Assembly: GCA_964474205.1 (NCBI GenBank) | Contig: CAYYRW010000037.1 | Coordinates: 5,599 to 69,598 of the forward strand | Origin: an uncultured Nitrospirales bacterium | Lineage (GTDB): Bacteria > Hydrogenedentota > Hydrogenedentia > Hydrogenedentales > CAILVY01 | Direction: 5' to 3' | DNA length: 64,000 nucleotides | Shown: positions 4,380 to 9,826 of the stretch, in pieces | How the letters are laid out: each line of letters opens with the position of its first letter | How positions within the stretch are numbered: the first letter of the stretch is position 1 | Position numbers and translations under genes: made by a program | The notes under the pieces: generated by a model | The model's input: the letters and a program-made list of their open reading frames with translations, nothing else | What the model was told of the DNA's origin: nothing | The model's database searches: none

Positions 4380-5159
4380 TCAAATGTTGTGCTTCATAAA
4401 TTCCAGACTAATGCGGAGGTCGTCAAATATGTCGCCTTCGCAATTATCCTGCTCATAGACATACCATTCGACGCCCGCTTCTTCCGCGGCCGCGAATATG
4501 CCGTCCCAGGGCAGTACACCGCTGCCTATGGGGCAGAATTTGTGTTGGCCGGGCTTATTTTTTTTGGACACGTCCTTCACATGAATAACCGGACAGCGGT
4601 TGGCGTATTTGCGCAGGTAATCAATCTCCTCCACCCCGCCAAGATGCAACCAAGCCAGGTCAAATTCACAGTACAGGTTCTTGGGCGAGGTGCTTTCGTA
4701 CAAAATATCCAGTTTCGTGCGCGGATCCTCCGGGAATTTCTCCAATTCATGCGCATGGTTGTGATACGAAAGGCGCATGCCGGCGGCGGCCAGTTTCGCG
4801 CCCAAGGCGTCCAGGCGGGCCGCGCCGCGTTTCCAGTCCTCGAGTGTCTTGGTGCAATCCCCCATCATGCCGCCCGGCGCGACATCTTTCGCCCCGACGG
4901 TTTGCCAAAATTTCACTTGGGCGTCAAAATCCTTTTCAAAGTCTTCCACCCCGACGTGGGCGGCAATCGCTTTCAAGCCGGCCTTGTCGAGCGCCGCCTT
5001 AATTTCCTCCGCGGTCAGATTGGGCATGCCGCTCCATTGCACAAACTCATACCCGATGTCACGGGCCCGTTTCAGGGTTTCCTCCAGGTTCTTCTTTGCC
5101 GGTTCGCGCACGGTGTACAATTGCAGCGCGATTCTCGGATGGGGTTTGCCATTGCTCAT
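4380..5159 (-). CDS. sugar phosphate isomerase/epimerase (xylose-isomerase-like TIM barrel)
   Basis: 259 aa; AP-endonuclease-2/xylose isomerase-like TIM barrel pattern (IALQLYTVRE..., HNHAHE, EYEQD). Confidence 0.75.
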   Translation of the reverse strand: MSNGKPHPRIALQLYTVREPAKKNLEETLKRARDIGYEFVQWSGMPNLTAEEIKAALDKAGLKAIAAHVGVEDFEKDFDAQVKFWQTVGAKDVAPGGMMGDCTKTLEDWKRGAARLDALGAKLAAAGMRLSYHNHAHELEKFPEDPRTKLDILYESTSPKNLYCEFDLAWLHLGGVEEIDYLRKYANRCPVIHVKDVSKKNKPGQHKFCPIGSGVLPWDGIFAAAEEAGVEWYVYEQDNCEGDIFDDLRISLEFMKHNI

Positions 5160-5236
5160 GTCCTATCTCCCAGTGCTCATGGTTGAATGTTGATGCGCCG
5201 TTATTCTAACAGGTTCAGAAAATGTTTTCATACCAC

Positions 5237-5434
5237 TATAGCGCGCGTAGTTGCGCCGGGGATGGTGCACCTAATCCCCCAACGGGGCAACCGGCGGTTG
5301 CCCACTTTTTTCTGTGGTGACGATTATGGCGTCTACTTGGATTTGTTGGCGGAATGGTGTGGGCACCGTCACGTGAACATCTGGGGGTGGTGTTTGATGC
5401 CTAATCATAGGCGCTGCTTCCCCGCGGCTGTGGA
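5237..5434 (+). mobile_element. decayed 5' fragment of IS200-like/RAYT (COG1943) transposase gene, repeat copy A
   Basis: ORF 5187-5453 encodes ...VHLIPQRGNRRLPTFFCGDDYGVYLDLLAEWCGHRHVNIWGWCLMPNH, matching the RAYT N-terminus up to the first His of the HUH motif, then diverges/stops; nearly identical to 6162-6359. Confidence 0.7.
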
Positions 5435-5478
5435 AGTTCAGTCTTCGATTTAGACGTTCTGGCGTCAGGAATAACATT

Positions 5479-5553
5479 TTTTGTGTTCTTTGTGATCTCT
5501 TCGGGCAAGGCCCCGGAATATTGGCCACAAAGAACGCATAGACCACAAAGAAA
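5479..5553. repeat. left imperfect inverted-repeat arm flanking GxxExxY gene (tgtgttctttgtg ... ccggaatattggccacaaagaacgcatagaccacaaag)
   Basis: Reverse-complement partner at 6017-6080 (ttctttgtgatctttgtgttctatgcggccaatattccg ... acacaaagaacgcaaag). Confidence 0.55.
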
Positions 5554-5633
5554 GTTTTTGTGATTTATGATCACTTTGTGGTTATATGGTTTGTGCGTTG
5601 AACATCAATCATCAACTGTGAGGAGATTAGGCC

Positions 5634-6026
5634 ATGGATATGAAAGCGTTGTGTGATCAGGTGAGGCAAACATCGTATGACATTCATGCCTATCACGGGC
5701 ATGGCCACCTTGAAAAAGTGTATGAGAATGCTTTGGCGCATCGTCTGAAGAAAATTGGGTTAAAGGCCGAACAGCAGCATCCAATTGATGTCTATGATGA
5801 GGACGGGACGCTTCTTGGGGAATTTTTTGCTGATCTGTTGGCGGAGGGAGAGCTGGTCATCGAACTCAAAGCAGTTAAAGCATTTGCCCCCGAGCACGAA
5901 GCCCAGATTCTCGGGTATTTGAAATCGTCCCGGAAGGAACACGGGTTACTGATAAACTTCGGTTCGTATAAATTTGAAATCCGCAAATACATCAGGAGTG
6001 TTAATCAAAAAGAAATTTCTTTGTGA
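5634..6026 (+). CDS. GxxExxY family protein (PD-(D/E)XK nuclease superfamily, TIGR04256-like)
   Basis: 130 aa; LLGEFFADLLAEGELVIELKAV ... HEAQILGYLKSSRKEHGLLINFG matches the characteristic C-terminal signature of GxxExxY proteins. Confidence 0.75.
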   Translation: MDMKALCDQVRQTSYDIHAYHGHGHLEKVYENALAHRLKKIGLKAEQQHPIDVYDEDGTLLGEFFADLLAEGELVIELKAVKAFAPEHEAQILGYLKSSRKEHGLLINFGSYKFEIRKYIRSVNQKEISL

Positions 6027-6080
6027 TCTTTGTGTTCTATGCGGCCAATATTCCGTAATTGTAACACAAAGAACGCAAAG
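6017..6080. repeat. right imperfect inverted-repeat arm flanking GxxExxY gene
   Basis: Contains ggccaatattccg and cacaaagaacgca, reverse complements of motifs at 5516-5540. Confidence 0.55.
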
Positions 6081-6085
6081 ATAGC

Positions 6086-6359
6086 ATCTCGGAAATCCGG
6101 GGACACCTTACTGAAATAGTATTTTCCCGCTGACTTTTATGCATTTTTCTGGCAGGACACGTATAGCGCGCGTAGTTGCGCCGGGGATGGTGCACCTAAT
6201 CCCCCAACGGGACAACCGGCGGTTAACCACTTTTTTCTGTGGTGACGATTATGCCGTCTACTTGGATTTATTGGCGGAATGGTGTGGGCACCGTCACGTG
6301 AACATCTGGGGGTGGTGTTTGATGCCTAATCATAGGCGCTGCTTCCCCGCGGCTGTGGA
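6086..6359 (+). mobile_element. decayed 5' region + N-terminal fragment of IS200-like/RAYT transposase gene, repeat copy B (longest copy)
   Basis: ORF 6139-6426 encodes the same RAYT N-terminus (…CLMPNHRRCFPAAV) then diverges; upstream 75 bp (ggaaatccggggacacc…cttttatgcatttttctggc) shared with copy C. Confidence 0.7.
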
Positions 6360-6909
6360 CGCACAACCGGGGCGCAGGGTACCTCCGAAGAAACCGGGGC
6401 ACAAGGGTCCAAGAAAGCCAAATTAAATATACGGTCCCCGGAATACCCCGACCCGGGCTTCAGATTGAGCACCGCTTCCAATGCCCGGGGCATGAGTTCC
6501 TCGCGCAGTTTGGGAATGAGCGATACCTGCTGGGTAATGTCGGGGGCTGCCGCAACCGGAACAGTAACCGGAGCCGGAGGCGGTGTGCCTGCAGACTGCG
6601 GTGCTTCCGTTCCGGCCACCCAGGAAGCGGCGTTCTTCAGGCCGCCCCCGATGCCGCCGGCCACGTCGCCCACGTCCTTGAGCGCGCCACATCTCGCTAA
6701 AAAAAGCCGTGCGCCAGCAGATGGAATCTTGTATAATTGTTGCTGAAACCGGCGGTAACAGCGCCCAAACAACACAGCGGAGGTTTTGTAATGAGGGAAG
6801 TGCCGGAACGTTACGAAGTCGAATGTAATCAAGAAGTTGATTTCGTGGTTCCCATGAAACGATAATCTACCGTACAATCGCAAACAGCGGAACAAAGGAG
6901 GTTCATATA

Positions 6910-7368
6910 ATGTCAAGTGCGTTAGCATCTTCGCAGCCATCCCAGGTTCTTCGTGCTGTTGATGCGGACCTGCCGTTTCTGGCCTCAGAAGCGGCTATTG
7001 ATCTCGACAACTTGCATTCAGGCACCTACACCGAAGTGGATGCGGTACGGCGCTTAGCGGAGCGGCTCAAGAATTCGGTGCCGAGTCGATACGATCCTGC
7101 AAACAAGCGCGTTTTGGACCCTGCAACACTCATCGTCCTTGGGGAGGCCGTAACAGTCTCGTTGTGGAACGAGGAATCTCCGCAAAAGGTGGATGAATTA
7201 CTCGCTAAAGCTGCCGAGATCGCCGATTTCTTGTCGGGAGATGAACTAACCAAGAATCCGGAACAGCTCAATAGTGCTCGTAACTTTTGTGTTGCTCTGT
7301 CACGAGCGGCACTAGCTTATCGGAAATCCCTTCGTGACTTGCGCCCACCGCACCCCTTTCGGAGGTAG
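6910..7368 (+). CDS. hypothetical protein (first gene of lower-GC three-gene operon)
   Basis: 152-aa ORF with strong SD (aaaggagg) 8 nt upstream; stop TAG 7366-7368 two nt before next ATG; no recognisable motif. Confidence 0.6.
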   Translation: MSSALASSQPSQVLRAVDADLPFLASEAAIDLDNLHSGTYTEVDAVRRLAERLKNSVPSRYDPANKRVLDPATLIVLGEAVTVSLWNEESPQKVDELLAKAAEIADFLSGDELTKNPEQLNSARNFCVALSRAALAYRKSLRDLRPPHPFRR

Positions 7369-7370
7369 TC

Positions 7371-8612
7371 ATGGTCACAGTTGAGTATGCGCGGGCTCGC
7401 ATCATGTCTGCCATAGATGAAATTGAGCGGCTCAAGCATTCCGAATTCCCCGACGATCATTCGCGTCAAGCGATATGCCTTCTGGAAAATCTATTCCGAG
7501 AGCGAAGTAGGGTTTTGTCAAGGATCACTGACACAACCGACCCCGAGGTGGCAAACAACGAGTGCAGCGTTTCGCTCGAGTTGCTCTTCGTATTTGTCCC
7601 AATCATGGGCTTTGTATTACGCTCGACAAACGTACGGAACGCGTTCGAAGCCTATTCGCCATTATTACGTCTCGCCAAGAGCCTTATGGGTGTCGACACG
7701 AAGCTCGTCGTGTCATCGGAATGGGAGTTTTCGCCCATTACTTACGTTTCGGGTACAACTCTACCCGGCTTCGTTCTCATTGGTTTGCCTGCAACTGAAT
7801 CCTCAAATCCCTTGATTGTACCGTTAGCCGGACATGAACTTGGGCATTCCGTTTGGGAAGTCGAAGGAGTTGGACAGAAATTCGAAGACAGGATTCGCCA
7901 AGGGGTAGTGGATGAACTAACGGGAAAGCGGTGGGCTGACTACACGGCACTCTACCCACAATATAAAAAAGACGACATTGAAACCAATTTGTTCTGCCGA
8001 TCTACATGGGAACCTGCATACACTTGGTCGATGTTGCAAGCGGAGGAGATCTTTTGCGACTTCTTCGGTCTTCGCTTGTTTGCCGAGTCATATCTGCACG
8101 CCTTTGCTTATCTCCTTGCACCAGGCACGTCAAGTCAACGTTCTGTGAAGTACCCAAATATTAGGCGCCGCATATCGCATATTGTCTTAGCAGCCAAAAA
8201 ACTCAACGTGACGGTTCCCAGCGCCTTTGTGAACAGTTTCGTAGTTGAGTCAGAACCGACAGAACCCAGAACAGCTTTACTCGTTTCCGTTGCCGATTTT
8301 GCATCCGAACTCCTTGTGGAGGAGTTGCTCGACGAGGCCCGAAGTTTTGCAGATGGTCATTCCATTGCCCAACGCGATTCTGCACGAGTCACAAATATCG
8401 CCGGCCAGTTCACAAAATGGGTTGTTCCGTCTGCTTCTCACGAGGCGCTCGTCAATATTCTGAATGCCGGATGGAACTGCAATCTTGATCCCAAGCTTTG
8501 GTTGAATGTTCCGCAACTCAAAAGCGAGGACCGCGTTCGCGTCTTGCGAGACCTAATGCTAAAGAGCATGGAAGTGGCAGAGATACAAATCCGGTTGGGG
8601 AACGCGTCATGA
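7371..8612 (+). CDS. HExxH zinc-metallopeptidase-like protein (ImmA/IrrE- or SprT-like motif LAGHELGHSVW)
   Basis: 413 aa; single HExxH (HELGH) with downstream acidic candidate third ligand (QAEEIFCDFFG); stop TGA overlaps next gene start (ATGA at 8609-8612). Confidence 0.55.
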   Translation: MVTVEYARARIMSAIDEIERLKHSEFPDDHSRQAICLLENLFRERSRVLSRITDTTDPEVANNECSVSLELLFVFVPIMGFVLRSTNVRNAFEAYSPLLRLAKSLMGVDTKLVVSSEWEFSPITYVSGTTLPGFVLIGLPATESSNPLIVPLAGHELGHSVWEVEGVGQKFEDRIRQGVVDELTGKRWADYTALYPQYKKDDIETNLFCRSTWEPAYTWSMLQAEEIFCDFFGLRLFAESYLHAFAYLLAPGTSSQRSVKYPNIRRRISHIVLAAKKLNVTVPSAFVNSFVVESEPTEPRTALLVSVADFASELLVEELLDEARSFADGHSIAQRDSARVTNIAGQFTKWVVPSASHEALVNILNAGWNCNLDPKLWLNVPQLKSEDRVRVLRDLMLKSMEVAEIQIRLGNAS

Positions 8613-9223
8613 TTCTTAAAGCCGACAAGATCGCGCAGGAGTTGAGGACGCCGTCAAATCCAGAGGATCCCTTAGTCATTACTCCACAGCCTGACTTGGA
8701 GTCTCTGAAGAAATCCGGCGCGGCATCTATCGATATTCGCTTGGGATGTTGGTTCTTGGCGTGTCGAACGAGTCGTACGGGGGGGTTGGATGTCTACGAA
8801 AAAGATAGCGTTACGCCCAATGAAGCCCAACTCACCAAGGGAAGCTATGTCCGATATGGCGAAGGATTTGTTTTGCATCCACGTTCGTTTGTTCTTGGTG
8901 TTACCATGGAGTGGATCCGATTGCCAGCGAATCTGGCAGCGTATGTCATCGGGCGATCCTCATGGGGGCGTCATGGGTTGATCATTGCGACAGCTACGGG
9001 AGTTCACCCCGGCTTCACGGGGTGTTTGACTCTTGAGCTATCCAATGTGGGTGAAATTCCGATCAAGGTGAAGCCGGGAACAACCATTTGCCAATTGTTC
9101 ATTCACCATGTGGACAGTGGAGATCCCAAGCTCGTTGACCGTAGCACCTTTGTTGGGCGAAGAAAGCCTACGCTTGGTTCGATTACCCTAGACGACATTG
9201 CCAAACAATTGGCCGGAACGTGA
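8609..9223 (+). CDS. dCTP deaminase / dUTPase-fold (Dcd-like) protein
   Basis: 204 aa from ATG 8609; MILKADKI..., GRSSWGRHGL, TGVHPGFTGCLTLELSNVGEIPIKVKPGTTICQL match the Dcd signature (GRSS.GR.GL ... G.ITLEL.N.G..PI.L.PG..I.QL) including the catalytic Glu context. Confidence 0.8.
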   Translation: MILKADKIAQELRTPSNPEDPLVITPQPDLESLKKSGAASIDIRLGCWFLACRTSRTGGLDVYEKDSVTPNEAQLTKGSYVRYGEGFVLHPRSFVLGVTMEWIRLPANLAAYVIGRSSWGRHGLIIATATGVHPGFTGCLTLELSNVGEIPIKVKPGTTICQLFIHHVDSGDPKLVDRSTFVGRRKPTLGSITLDDIAKQLAGT

Positions 9224-9506
9224 CACCTGATACGACGTGCGTTGGGGCACATCGAAGTCTACAAAATCGCTCAACCGGCCAGCTATATAGACGCGCGTAA
9301 ATAAACCAACAATAACGGTTCACAAAAACGGTTTCATCAGGCCGAGAATATTTTCGGGGTTCTGCTGAATGTTGGCGAAAGTTGTGAACCGGCTCTGACA
9401 CAATTCCTCGGGAGTGTCGAAGTAGACATTGTGGGTTGACTCCATTCGCGTGTAATGCCATACCCATTCCACCGCGTTAAACTCCGGCGAGTAGGAAATC
9501 CGGGGG

Positions 9507-9675
9507 AAATCCGAGGACACCATGTAGAAATATTATTTTCCTGCGGACTTTTATGTATTTTTCTGGCGTGGCACATATAGCGCGCGTAGCCGCGCCGGGG
9601 AAAGCGCATCCTATCCCCCAACGGGGCAACCGGCGGTTGCCCGCTTTTTTCTGCGGTGACGATTATGGCGTCTAC
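9507..9675 (+). mobile_element. decayed RAYT 5' fragment, repeat copy C (shortest, most diverged)
   Basis: ggaaatccgaggacacc…tatagcgcgcgtagccgcgccgggg…caaccggcggttgcccgcttttttctgcggtgacgattatggcgtctac aligns with copies A/B; followed at ~9715-9750 by aattaaatata..cggaatac segment also present after copy B (~6420-6450). Confidence 0.6.
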
Positions 9676-9826
9676 AGAAATTGGGGTCCCACGGGTCCAT
9701 GGAAGCCGAATTAAATATAGTGCCTTCGGAATACGCCGGAATACTGAAAGTCGGGGGAGGCACGAGCGGGAGGGCAGGAGGGACAGATTATTGGACATTG
9801 GACGCGACACTTTATATGATTCGGTC

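Follow-up and report, generated by a model that had tools for sequence, protein, structure and literature searches.

Does the GxxExxY gene in this DNA form a single element with the inverted repeats around it and, if so, what kind of element is it? In the window (the whole 64,000-nucleotide stretch analysed here) the gene and its repeats lie between two copies of another repeat, and a sequence-only reading had proposed that they make up an autonomous small mobile unit. The argument turns on the following features:

5229..5472, + strand: copy 1 of a Y1 (IS200/RAYT-like) transposase gene fragment, context outside the cassette, with limits read from a three-copy alignment
5480..5497, + strand: outer left T-rich arm TTTGTGTTCTTTGTGATC, a half-unit of the repeat family, from repeat search and DNA fold
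5514..5559, + strand: left inverted-repeat arm of the central unit, 46 nt, 85% complementary to 6010-6055
5560..5633, + strand: spacer from the left arm to the start codon, read from the sequence and conserved in the closest relatives (L003)
5634-6026, + strand: GxxExxY protein gene, 130 aa, with its stop codon TGA (6024-6026) inside the right arm
6010..6055, + strand: right inverted-repeat arm of the central unit, 46 nt, partner of 5514-5559
6063..6081, + strand: outer right A-rich arm AACACAAAGAACGCAAAGA, a half-unit, from repeat search and DNA fold
6091..6450, + strand: copy 2 of the same transposase-fragment element, with its own short inverted repeat GGAAATCCGGGGAC / GTCCCCGGAATACC, context
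9505-9738: copy 3 of the transposase-fragment element, internally deleted, from self-BLAST and alignment

The protein itself is best described as a candidate nuclease. The ORF at 5634-6026 matches TIGR04256 (GxxExxY; E 6e-34, 116.8 bits, cut-off 35) and, as its sole Pfam match, PF13366 (PDDEXK_3; E 2e-30, 105.9 bits, cut-off 22), and both the motif residues G24, E27 and Y30 and the catalytic residues D67, E77 and K79 are invariant in 33 homologues. Its predicted structure is an alpha-beta nuclease fold (pLDDT 84), closest among solved structures to Cas4 and the Dna2 nuclease domain; a search of the PDB by sequence returned no solved structure. On the strength of these matches, residues and model, the window protein, which has a single cysteine in 130 residues, is predicted to be a minimal PD-(D/E)XK nuclease of the Cas4/RecB-like kind. 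The GxxExxY/PDDEXK_3 family, which has no assigned function, is very large, with at least 8,000 scored candidates in our homologue search, nearly all of them significant. A literature search found GxxExxY or PF13366 named in passing only and no study of the family, and one annotation pipeline mixes up the GxxExxY and Cas4 families. The link to 23S rRNA intervening sequences that had been stated for such genes is not supported for this one: the ORF matches PF13366 only, whereas the proteins of those sequences belong to a distinct Pfam family, PF05635, a four-helix bundle, and an Rfam scan of 5150-6500 found no rRNA. The same scan gave no other family either, only sub-threshold miRNA and snoRNA look-alikes, which led us to reject a known RNA family as the identity of the arms. 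Membership of a defence system was likewise rejected, PADLOC giving nothing meaningful for the ORF and its three downstream neighbours, as was a phage origin, relatives of this GxxExxY subfamily being absent from the viral contigs searched. An 18-nt degenerate pattern gave mostly single matches in viral contigs, which were judged largely chance and left unused.

The inverted repeats around the gene are real. The central arms are complementary over 46 nt at 85%, and in 5400-6150 the top score for an ungapped inverted repeat, 25, exceeds those of all 200 dinucleotide shuffles (mean 11.0, sd 1.9, max 18); together with the recurrence of the repeats in relatives, this rules out a chance origin. 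In the left arm (5514..5559), CGGAATATTGGCC is the outer part and GGCCACAAAGAACGCATAGACCACAAAGAAA (5523-5553) an A-rich arm of 9-nt units; the right arm (6010..6055) combines a T-rich arm TTTCTTTGTGATCTTTGTGTTCTATGCGGCC (6016-6046) with GGCCAATATTCCG. Further out is a second inverted repeat of 15 nt (5480-5494 versus 6065-6079, 93% complementary). The central unit 5514-6055 thus bears an extra half-arm on each side, and each flank therefore folds as a hairpin of its own, made from 9-nt units of the CACAAAGAA type: 5486-5503/5535-5552 on the left, where the outer arm (5480..5497) pairs locally with 5526-5552, and 6018-6036/6063-6081 on the right, where the outer arm (6063..6081) pairs with 6018-6036. 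As single-stranded DNA, the left flank folds at -13.2 kcal/mol (z -2.6) and the right at -15.3 kcal/mol (z -5.4). Since both flanks are palindromic, each repeats the other in direct as well as in inverted orientation, and the two motifs quoted from them differ in this respect. ggccaatattccg is truly inverted between the flanks, with exact matches at the cassette only and three near-matches (1-2 mismatches) elsewhere in the 64 kb, whereas cacaaagaacgca is direct, since the + strand carries it in either flank, and its imperfect complements are at 5482-5494 and 6022-6034; all four of its matches in the 64 kb (up to 2 mismatches) are at the cassette. Neither motif matching nor self-BLAST found a solo arm copy elsewhere in the window, which holds one copy of the cassette, and a genome-wide repeat population is therefore not demonstrated for the window organism.

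The limits originally drawn for the cassette, 5470-6085, correspond to the unit between the two flanking repeat copies, copy 1 ending at about 5472 and the homology of copies 2 and 3 beginning at about 6088-6091. Homology of related loci with the window begins at the outer left arm (L004 and L005) and extends past the outer right arm to about 6087 (L003). The flanking copies share a 198-nt core direct repeat (5237-5434, 97% identical to 6162-6359), for which searches of Pfam, NCBIfam and, by sequence, the PDB gave no match; only the homologue search identified them, through relatives that carry PF01797 or are named 'transposase, partial'. Judged by these relatives, the repeats are Y1 transposase gene fragments unrelated to the cassette, and its placement between two transposase-fragment repeats had been read correctly, copies 1 and 2 both relating to a Y1 (IS200/RAYT-like) transposase gene. 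Within the cassette, GAGGAG (5620-5625) lies 8 nt before the ATG of the GxxExxY gene, and TTGTGA-18-TTATAT (5558-5587) in the left spacer is weakly promoter-like; a promoter consensus scan of the + strand at the cassette called none, and a terminator scan at the arms called no intrinsic terminator.

Gene and arms recur together well beyond this locus. Across a set of 81 non-redundant related GxxExxY loci (69-91% amino-acid identity), arms lie within 400 nt of the gene in 73 and on both sides of it in 59, and their density is 3.81 per kb near the gene versus 0.173 per kb far from it, a 22-fold difference. An A-rich-type arm stands upstream of the gene in 66 of the 81, a T-rich arm as a rule marks the 3' end of the ORF, and the commonest layout (26 loci) has an A-rich arm upstream, the ORF, and a T-rich arm downstream, about 0.5 kb overall. 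These canonical elements (median length 481.5 nt) run TTAAC-CGCAAAGAAC..., then 10-40 nt, then ATG, with no room for an internal promoter, and in 17 of the 26 the ORF runs through the T-rich 3' arm. The arms are about 30 nt long, built from 9-nt units C[A/G]CA[A/G]AGAA, and are better conserved among orthologues than the adjoining spacer. Related arms are also borne by the divergent GxxExxY genes L260 and L262, and a MazE/PIN toxin-antitoxin pair follows the GxxExxY gene in one close relative. Where flanking sequence sufficed for a comparison, in 73 loci, 56 unrelated context groups were distinguished. A layout that recurs so often, and in so many contexts, bears out the proposal that repeats and ORF are one cassette-like unit. 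Neither of the outcomes named beforehand as refuting it occurred: other GxxExxY copies do carry the repeats, and the repeats are not unique to the window locus.

The arms do bracket the gene, as terminal inverted repeats of a cassette should, but they are not private to it: they belong to a dispersed family that is mostly gene-less, with a GxxExxY gene within 400 nt of about 9 of 140 genome pattern matches and none nearby for about 130. Our genome scan found more than 120 stretches with arms, and a near-identical 24-nt arm sequence, in MAGs whose labels span many phyla (Planctomycetota, Verrucomicrobiota, Kiritimatiellia, Lentisphaerota, Hydrogenedentota, Sumerlaeota, Chloroflexota, Cyanobacteria, Bacteroidota and others), labels that can be wrong, as with L221, which is labelled Spirochaetaceae and is 99.6% identical to a Thermoguttaceae contig. 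Complete palindromes number 72 (median 69 nt), and 119 of 263 are single unpaired arms. Tandem arrays of 4-5 palindrome units occur, and at least 12 arm stretches are found in one MAG, CAVWAL01, where one of them is a GxxExxY gene with five hairpins in tandem ahead of it. Solo copies occupy intergenic gaps, frequently just past a stop codon, and also lie between housekeeping genes in many genomes. Their stems are only about 78% paired, and 52 solo palindromes gave no compensatory covariation (own-arm match 21.7 versus cross-arm 21.6 of 28 positions); this does not establish selection on pairing, and we make no structural-RNA claim. Across 120 genome loci, the sole ORF family that recurs within 300 nt of the arms is GxxExxY, and all six GxxExxY genes among these loci have adjoining arms. 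A literature search by repeat sequence, family names and REP/RAYT returned no report of this repeat or of its association with GxxExxY.

The comparison of empty and filled sites in related genomes that had been suggested as a check comes from a related Kiritimatiellia element rather than from the window's own locus. The gap between ATP-synt_C and ABC-F genes holds the element, arms and ORF, in L334, L350, L353, L356 and L253, whereas in L351/L352 the same gap is a 96-nt spacer with neither arm nor ORF; polarity was taken from an ABC-F tree, outgroup synteny being broken, and L351 is nested in it among element-filled lineages. Five lineages thus have both arms and ORF, and a sixth, nested among them, cleanly lacks both, which shows that gain or loss involves the whole unit. 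Between filled and empty sites the boundaries are flush, with no clear target-site duplication at 80-90% flank identity. The empty orthologous site has no palindrome, so that insertion there was not into a pre-existing target. This Kiritimatiellia element thus qualifies as mobile in that its parts are jointly present or absent at one orthologous site. Recent mobility we rejected: identical GxxExxY proteins from many contigs and samples have the same surroundings every time, orthologous loci have diverged at the pace of their flanks, and no recent jumping was seen among the proteins and loci compared. Orthologous copies persist by vertical descent with the catalytic site intact. When two related genomes (L257 and L269) were compared for hairpin presence and absence, the indels were not repeat units and the single arm was conserved. 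As to autonomy, the claim is not supported: a Cas4-like nuclease of about 120 residues belongs to none of the recognised transposase classes, whether DDE, HUH/Y1, serine or tyrosine recombinase.

Taking these results together, we lean, at slightly better than an even chance, towards the view that the window region is one copy of a widespread compact nuclease-repeat element, IS/MITE-like or RAYT/REPIN-like. Because gene-plus-repeat units and gene-less mini-palindromes occur in many phyla, the unit seems to be a selfish or domesticated DNA element not described before, and not a peculiarity of this locus. We infer that the nuclease acts on its own arms, which would be its cis sites, whether as hairpins or cruciforms or as single strands. 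Such a system would resemble an IS with its MITE derivatives or, given the long vertical persistence, a RAYT with its REPINs, with the gene as a partner, domesticated or seldom on the move, by which the short palindromes are kept up or spread; strand joining is beyond a nuclease on its own, so host repair or replication would have to supply any 'paste' step. A bolder version, which we put forward only tentatively, is that GxxExxY nucleases and CACAAAGAA-type palindromes form an undescribed cross-phylum partnership, analogous to RAYT-REPIN and driven by a minimal Cas4-like PD-(D/E)XK enzyme, in which the nuclease, by recognising the arms as hairpins or single strands, would propagate or preserve its own 0.5-kb cassette along with the gene-less palindromes, and which would constitute a new class of bacterial mobile or domesticated element.

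Other explanations assign the arms to a different agent or to a different function. They may be a MITE- or REP-like family moved by another enzyme (a Y1/RAYT-type or DDE transposase elsewhere), the GxxExxY gene being cargo (a 'mobile insertion cassette') or a gene where repeats accumulate. We consider this unlikely, although arm copies are mostly solo and the nuclease is in no known transposase class, because no transposase or other family than GxxExxY recurs within 300 nt of the arms in the 120 genome loci, where six of six GxxExxY genes have arms beside them, and cargo would not explain arms in 90% of the subfamily and in divergent members. The Y1-transposase gene fragments directly on either side of the window cassette invite the same explanation, yet they lie outside the arms and have different terminal repeats of their own. 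There is also a resemblance to IS200/IS605-type elements, which are not known to leave a target duplication, in the subterminal hairpins without a clear duplication.

That nothing moves at all, and that the arms are cis expression elements of an ordinary host gene (5'/3' UTR stem-loops, terminators or an RNase III-type long-range stem enclosing the ORF), with the solo hairpins as REP-like terminators or mRNA stabilisers, seems to us quite improbable. It would suit the placing of the arms, directly before the ribosome-binding site and at the ORF's 3' end, the intergenic solo copies that often follow stop codons, the stable inheritance of copies, the conservation of arms relative to neighbouring spacer and the good folding of both window flanks. 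However, the 52 solo palindromes lack compensatory covariation and have stems about 78% paired, single unpaired arms are common (119 of 263), tandem arrays of 4-5 units occur, no Rfam family matches and the terminator scan is negative at the arms; near-identical 24-nt arms across many phylum labels would be unexpected for convergent regulatory hairpins, and the joint presence or absence of arms and ORF, with 56 unrelated contexts, points to insertion or deletion as a unit. Finally, a small ORF without a promoter, imperfect palindromes with consensus ends TTTAAC ... GTTAAAT that fit attC cores (RYYYAAC / GTTRRRY), and the MazE/PIN pair that follows one close relative might suggest an integron-type gene cassette whose hairpins are attC recombination sites. 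This is very improbable, since the commonest layout has the ORF between two arms, inside the palindrome, and not upstream of a compact attC, solo copies stand between housekeeping genes in many genomes, no cassette array is seen in the window, and the arm sequence itself is conserved across many phylum labels, whereas attC sites conserve structure rather than sequence.

The analysis ties the GxxExxY family to a specific conserved repeat, gene and repeat being gained or lost together, and offers a testable hypothesis for the role of GxxExxY, namely a nuclease acting on its own flanking arms. If it does so act, this would be a second, mechanistically different partnership of a repeat and a domesticated enzyme beside REPIN-RAYT, and would explain many short palindromes in genome annotations of the PVC group, Chloroflexota and Cyanobacteria, as well as the odd low-complexity tails (...LSALFAFFAVK, ...HKEHKE...) in those annotations. 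For annotation more generally, C-terminal extensions of many GxxExxY family members are read-through into the 3' arm.

Comparison with known systems places the element near several of them. With Cas4/RecB-family nucleases the protein shares the conserved E...D...ExK catalytic residues and, in the model, the core fold, but it has about 120 residues and, unlike Cas4, no iron-sulfur cluster module; no cas genes are among the neighbours listed for related loci. PD-(D/E)XK homing endonucleases, of which I-Ssp6803I is an example, are likewise small stand-alone nuclease genes in sequence that could be their own symmetrical target, whereas this unit lies outside any intron or intein and its empty orthologous site has no palindrome. 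Insertion sequences with MITE derivatives and mobile insertion cassettes (MICs) offer a close parallel: terminal inverted repeats around a single ORF that enters the 3' repeat, ORF-less miniatures with the same ends, many unrelated sites and unit-wise presence or absence. The differences are that the sole ORF here is in no known transposase class, that no target-site duplication could be shown, and that neither multi-copy identical elements nor recent jumps were seen among the identical proteins compared or in the 64 kb, which hold one copy; to our knowledge, a unit of about 0.48-0.55 kb is also shorter than any described autonomous IS. IS200/IS605-type elements, which use single-strand 'peel and paste', are similar in their hairpin-forming ends, lack of obvious target duplication and very small size (PMC6006769), and next to the window copy there is, as it happens, a Y1 transposase gene fragment; but no Y1 transposase or TnpB is inside the unit or recurs near the arms, and the ends here, instead of differing as left and right hairpins, mirror each other as near-symmetrical inverted repeats. 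The system of RAYTs and REPINs also combines dispersed short imperfect palindromes with one associated enzyme gene, which has inverted repeat copies on either side and is inherited vertically over the long term, the repeat occurring in local clusters and arrays. In place of its HUH/Y1 transposase, the enzyme here would be a PD-(D/E)XK Cas4-like nuclease; the arms consist of 9-nt sub-repeats and do not carry the GTAG/CGTC tag known from described REPs; and whereas REPINs are lineage-specific, this repeat is common to MAGs of many phylum labels, with the ORF inside one palindromic unit and reading into its arm.

The core of the cassette is a 130-aa ORF (5634-6026, + strand) whose product is a member of the GxxExxY/PF13366 family (TIGR04256, E 6e-34; PF13366 PDDEXK_3, E 2e-30). 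This nuclease is under purifying selection, G24, E27, Y30, D67, E77 and K79 are invariant across 33 homologues, and its AlphaFold model has a pLDDT of 84 and a pTM of 0.80. The sequence-only reading had placed inverted repeats on both sides of the ORF, and our repeat search, shuffle test and motif matches confirmed both the repeats and their coordinates. For 5400-6150 the top ungapped inverted-repeat score came to 25, compared with a mean of 11.0 ± 1.9 and a maximum of 18 in 200 dinucleotide-preserving shuffles, and single-stranded DNA folding of the flanks gives z values of -2.6 (left) and -5.4 (right). All four window matches to cacaaagaacgca fall at the cassette, which also holds the window's only exact match to ggccaatattccg, with three near-matches elsewhere in the window. 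Comparison with relatives shows the flanks to be composed of 9-nt units (CACAAAGAA and variants) arranged in purine-rich A-arms and complementary T-arms.

Features of the window cassette (inverted repeats and hairpins from a repeat search of the window)
5514-5559 versus 6010-6055: main inverted repeat, 46 nt, 85% complementary
5480-5494 versus 6065-6079: outer inverted repeat, 15 nt, 93% complementary
5486-5503/5535-5552: left-flank hairpin
6018-6036/6063-6081: right-flank hairpin
5480-5497: outer T-arm, left flank
Between 5480-5497 and 5523-5553: left spacer, contains CCGGAATATTGGCC
5523-5553: A-arm, left, central unit
About 80 nt leading up to the ORF: 5' stretch, GAGGAG 8 nt ahead of the ATG
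5634-6026, +: ORF, TGA stop within the following T-arm
6016-6046: T-arm, right, central unit
Between 6016-6046 and 6063-6081: right spacer, contains GGCCAATATTCCG
6063-6081: outer A-arm, right flank

The 46-nt repeat thus represents the central A-arm and T-arm enclosing the ORF, and the local hairpin of each flank arises from an added outer half-arm. The layout of the window copy is atypical in having these additional half-arms and in its longer 5' spacer. From the A-arm to the ATG, no promoter-like site was called on the + strand.

The cassette is bracketed by two copies of a repeated element (5237-5434 and 6162-6359, 97% identical), of which a third copy, internally deleted, lies at 9505-9738. 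Sequence searches against Pfam, NCBIfam and PDB gave no match to this element. Because the relatives of the element in the database are short proteins, of which three out of 13 carry PF01797 (Y1_Tnp) or are named "transposase, partial," we regard it as a Y1/IS200-RAYT-like transposase gene fragment, in agreement with the earlier placement of the cassette between transposase-fragment repeats. The fragment has its own terminal repeat (I7), different from the cassette arms. Each copy (5229-5472, 6091-6450 and 9505-9738) is cut off right after ...CLMPNH and bounded by a short inverted repeat GGAAATCCGGGGAC / GTCCCCGGAATACC, and the JGI assembly of this DNA is interrupted within the repeated element (its contig, L001, begins at window 5234). 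The copies bracket the cassette and a three-gene module, as though they marked where inserted modules begin and end. This module, between copies 2 and 3 (6910-9223), consists of three co-oriented ORFs, one dCTP deaminase-like (204 aa; PF22769, E 5e-31) and two (152 and 413 aa) matched by neither Pfam nor PADLOC. The three genes may form an accessory or defence-type module; PADLOC found nothing in it.

The arms and the ORF form one unit that is present in many contexts. Our comparative evidence is drawn from related elements, the window organism itself having been surveyed over 64 kb. The GxxExxY family is huge (at least 7,969 members at E ≤ 1e-10, among 8,000 scored candidates), and a protein-based metagenome scan gave 80 loci with 68-91% identity. 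Defining an arm as at least two consecutive units, detected by a simple regular expression, we found at least one arm within 400 nt of the gene in 73 of 81 non-redundant loci, and on both sides in 59, which bears out the expectation that other GxxExxY copies carry such repeats. Arms number 3.81 per kb close to the gene versus 0.173 per kb further off, and 9-mers such as CGCAAAGAA, GCAAAGAAC and CACAAAGAA are enriched 12- to 67-fold near the genes (350 nt upstream, 300 nt downstream). The 73 loci with sufficient flanking sequence fall into 56 unrelated contexts. Two divergent GxxExxY genes encountered by chance, L260 and L262 (E 1e-24 and 1e-16 to the subfamily profile), likewise have related arms beside them, in L262 as a variant of 8-nt period.

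In the most frequent layout (26 loci) a single A-arm precedes the gene and a single T-arm follows it; elsewhere, full hairpins or tandem arrays occur on one side or on both. The simplest element consists of (T)TTAAC-CGCAAAGAACGCAGAGAACACAAAG, a stretch of 10-40 nt that includes a ribosome-binding site, and ATG...ORF...CTCTGCGCTCTTTGCGTTCTTTGCG-GTTAAAtga, with medians of 481.5 nt from arm to arm and 22 nt from the A-arm end to the start codon. The ORF continues across the T-arm in 17 of 26 elements, hence tails such as ...LSALFAFFAVK. This hydrophobic tail stops just beyond the element's terminal GTTAAA, and readthrough accounts for the 148-154-aa annotations of many family members, in L014, L020, L039, L045, L046, L049, L050, L068 and L070; translated in other frames, arms yield strings such as HKEHKE or LCVLCG. 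The nearest relatives among the matches listed (L003 and L004/L005, 88-91% amino-acid identity) have the same hairpin upstream in genomic contexts that differ from the window. L003, whose gene is followed by a MazE/PIN pair, has this hairpin downstream too, with its right-hand spacer inverted relative to the window. The loop between T-arm and A-arm is flipped in this 88%-identical relative (window 6017-6081 versus L003 538-600: CAATATTCCG... versus ...CCTGAATATTG), as expected from palindrome-crossing recombination or copying.

Arms also occur without the gene, as short palindromes and arrays in many genomes. A scan of one genome per species with a 24-nt arm pattern from the window lineage gave at least 120 matching loci. 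Those listed come from metagenome-assembled genomes (MAGs) labelled, by record title, Planctomycetota, Verrucomicrobiota, Kiritimatiellia, Lentisphaerota, Hydrogenedentota, Sumerlaeota, Chloroflexota, Cyanobacteria, Bacteroidota, Ignavibacteria, Acidobacteriota and some Proteobacteria, labels that are fallible (L221 bears the name Spirochaetaceae, yet a Thermoguttaceae contig is 99.6% identical to it). Of at least 263 arms in these loci, which occupy intergenic gaps, often directly past stop codons, 119 are unpaired and 144 make 72 A-arm/loop/T-arm palindromes (median 69 nt, 22-nt loop, among the matches listed). The long-read MAG CAVWAL01 has at least 12 stretches, one with five tandem hairpins ahead of a GxxExxY gene. 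Its tandem arrays (L294 5570-6090; L236 7011-7880; L237 430-780) have fixed periods of 93-94 nt, and of 211 nt including extra conserved sequence, which suggests local amplification of whole units. Single unpaired A-arms lie directly upstream of start codons of unrelated genes (L235, about 6195-6240; L257 2348-2371 with L269 4517-4540). Since one is kept at the same place in two genomes with flanks 82-88% identical, half-units may persist and, judging from their position, may act as a 5' leader or ribosome-binding sequence.

Copies persist by vertical inheritance. Identical proteins on many contigs always share the same context (P0082 has a type III restriction subunit on one side and a methylase on the other, P0103 lies in the gap separating ATP-synt_C from an ABC-F gene, and a trypsin-like gene follows P0022), and many loci are orthologous across genomes with flanks only 70-85% identical, with arm number and arrangement varying among orthologues. 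In diverged genomes (L325-L333, L216, L250, L023, L028, L033, L047, L058, L072) the element occupies one shared site in a type III restriction-modification locus, adjoining the ResIII helicase-nuclease and N6_N4 methylase genes; in L216, L250 and L033 the upstream gene's TAA stop lies within the terminal (T)TAAC. At the ATP-synt_C/ABC-F locus of Kiritimatiellia-like genomes, the element is at the same place in L334, L350, L353/L354, L356 and L253, and in L351/L352 that place is taken by a 96-nt spacer, which includes the upstream terminator hairpin and neither ORF nor arm, so that the unit can be missing as a whole. An ABC-F neighbour-joining tree groups L351 with L334 and L350, inside filled lineages, and distances among GxxExxY proteins agree with those among ABC-F proteins. 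The most parsimonious account is a single old insertion that was inherited vertically, with arms and ORF cleanly lost together in one lineage. The element is bounded by the arms' outer ends (...ATTG|GCCACAAAG ... CTTTGTGGC|CAAT...), and no target-site duplication was established in this filled versus empty comparison. Arms are better conserved than adjoining spacers (L253 versus L334). L353 has a complete A-arm/loop/T-arm hairpin 3' of the ORF (about 2410-2490) where orthologues have a T-arm only, so a complementary arm was added beside an existing one.

We infer that the arms would be cis sites of the GxxExxY nuclease. In that case the system would resemble an insertion sequence (IS) with MITE derivatives, or, given the long-term persistence of copies, may be nearer to a RAYT with its REPINs. 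Since a nuclease is unable to join strands, spread would need host repair or replication, a speculative step. At the ATP-synt_C/ABC-F locus the empty site has no palindrome, which speaks against the ORF having simply homed into a hairpin already present there. The ORF could instead be cargo of a repeat mobilised by another enzyme. Of the 140 pattern matches listed, only about nine have a GxxExxY gene within 400 nt; however, among the matches listed, arms adjoin six of six GxxExxY genes in the genome-scan loci, and no other ORF family recurs within 300 nt of arms.

Alternatively, the arms could be expression signals. Covariation was not found: in solo palindromes, the match to a copy's own arm (21.7 of 28 positions) is no better than that across copies (21.6), a value that 645 of 2,000 permutations equalled or exceeded for the own-arm match, and therefore each arm is near consensus rather than the two co-varying for pairing. 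Near-identical arm sequence in MAGs labelled as many phyla, the occurrence of unpaired arms and arrays, and the insertion or deletion of arms and ORF as one unit also argue against it. A third alternative is an integron cassette with attC sites: the element ends do resemble attC cores, but the ORF sits inside the palindrome.

Full-text search, which covered literature other than subscription journals and database family notes, returned only incidental mentions of the repeat sequence, GxxExxY or PDDEXK_3/PF13366/TIGR04256. The element lacks at least one defining feature of each of IS families, RAYT-REPIN systems, Cas4 proper and 23S-IVS proteins, and may fit integron cassettes only in part. RAYTs are described as single-copy, vertically inherited enzymes flanked by repeats they replicate. 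The REP superfamilies on record carry a GTAG or CGTC tag and are associated with Y1 transposases, whereas the cassette repeat has neither tag nor such a link. We rate the element as selfish or domesticated, bounded by repeats and accompanied by miniature derivatives and, should the nuclease prove its active partner, it would represent a new class of element.
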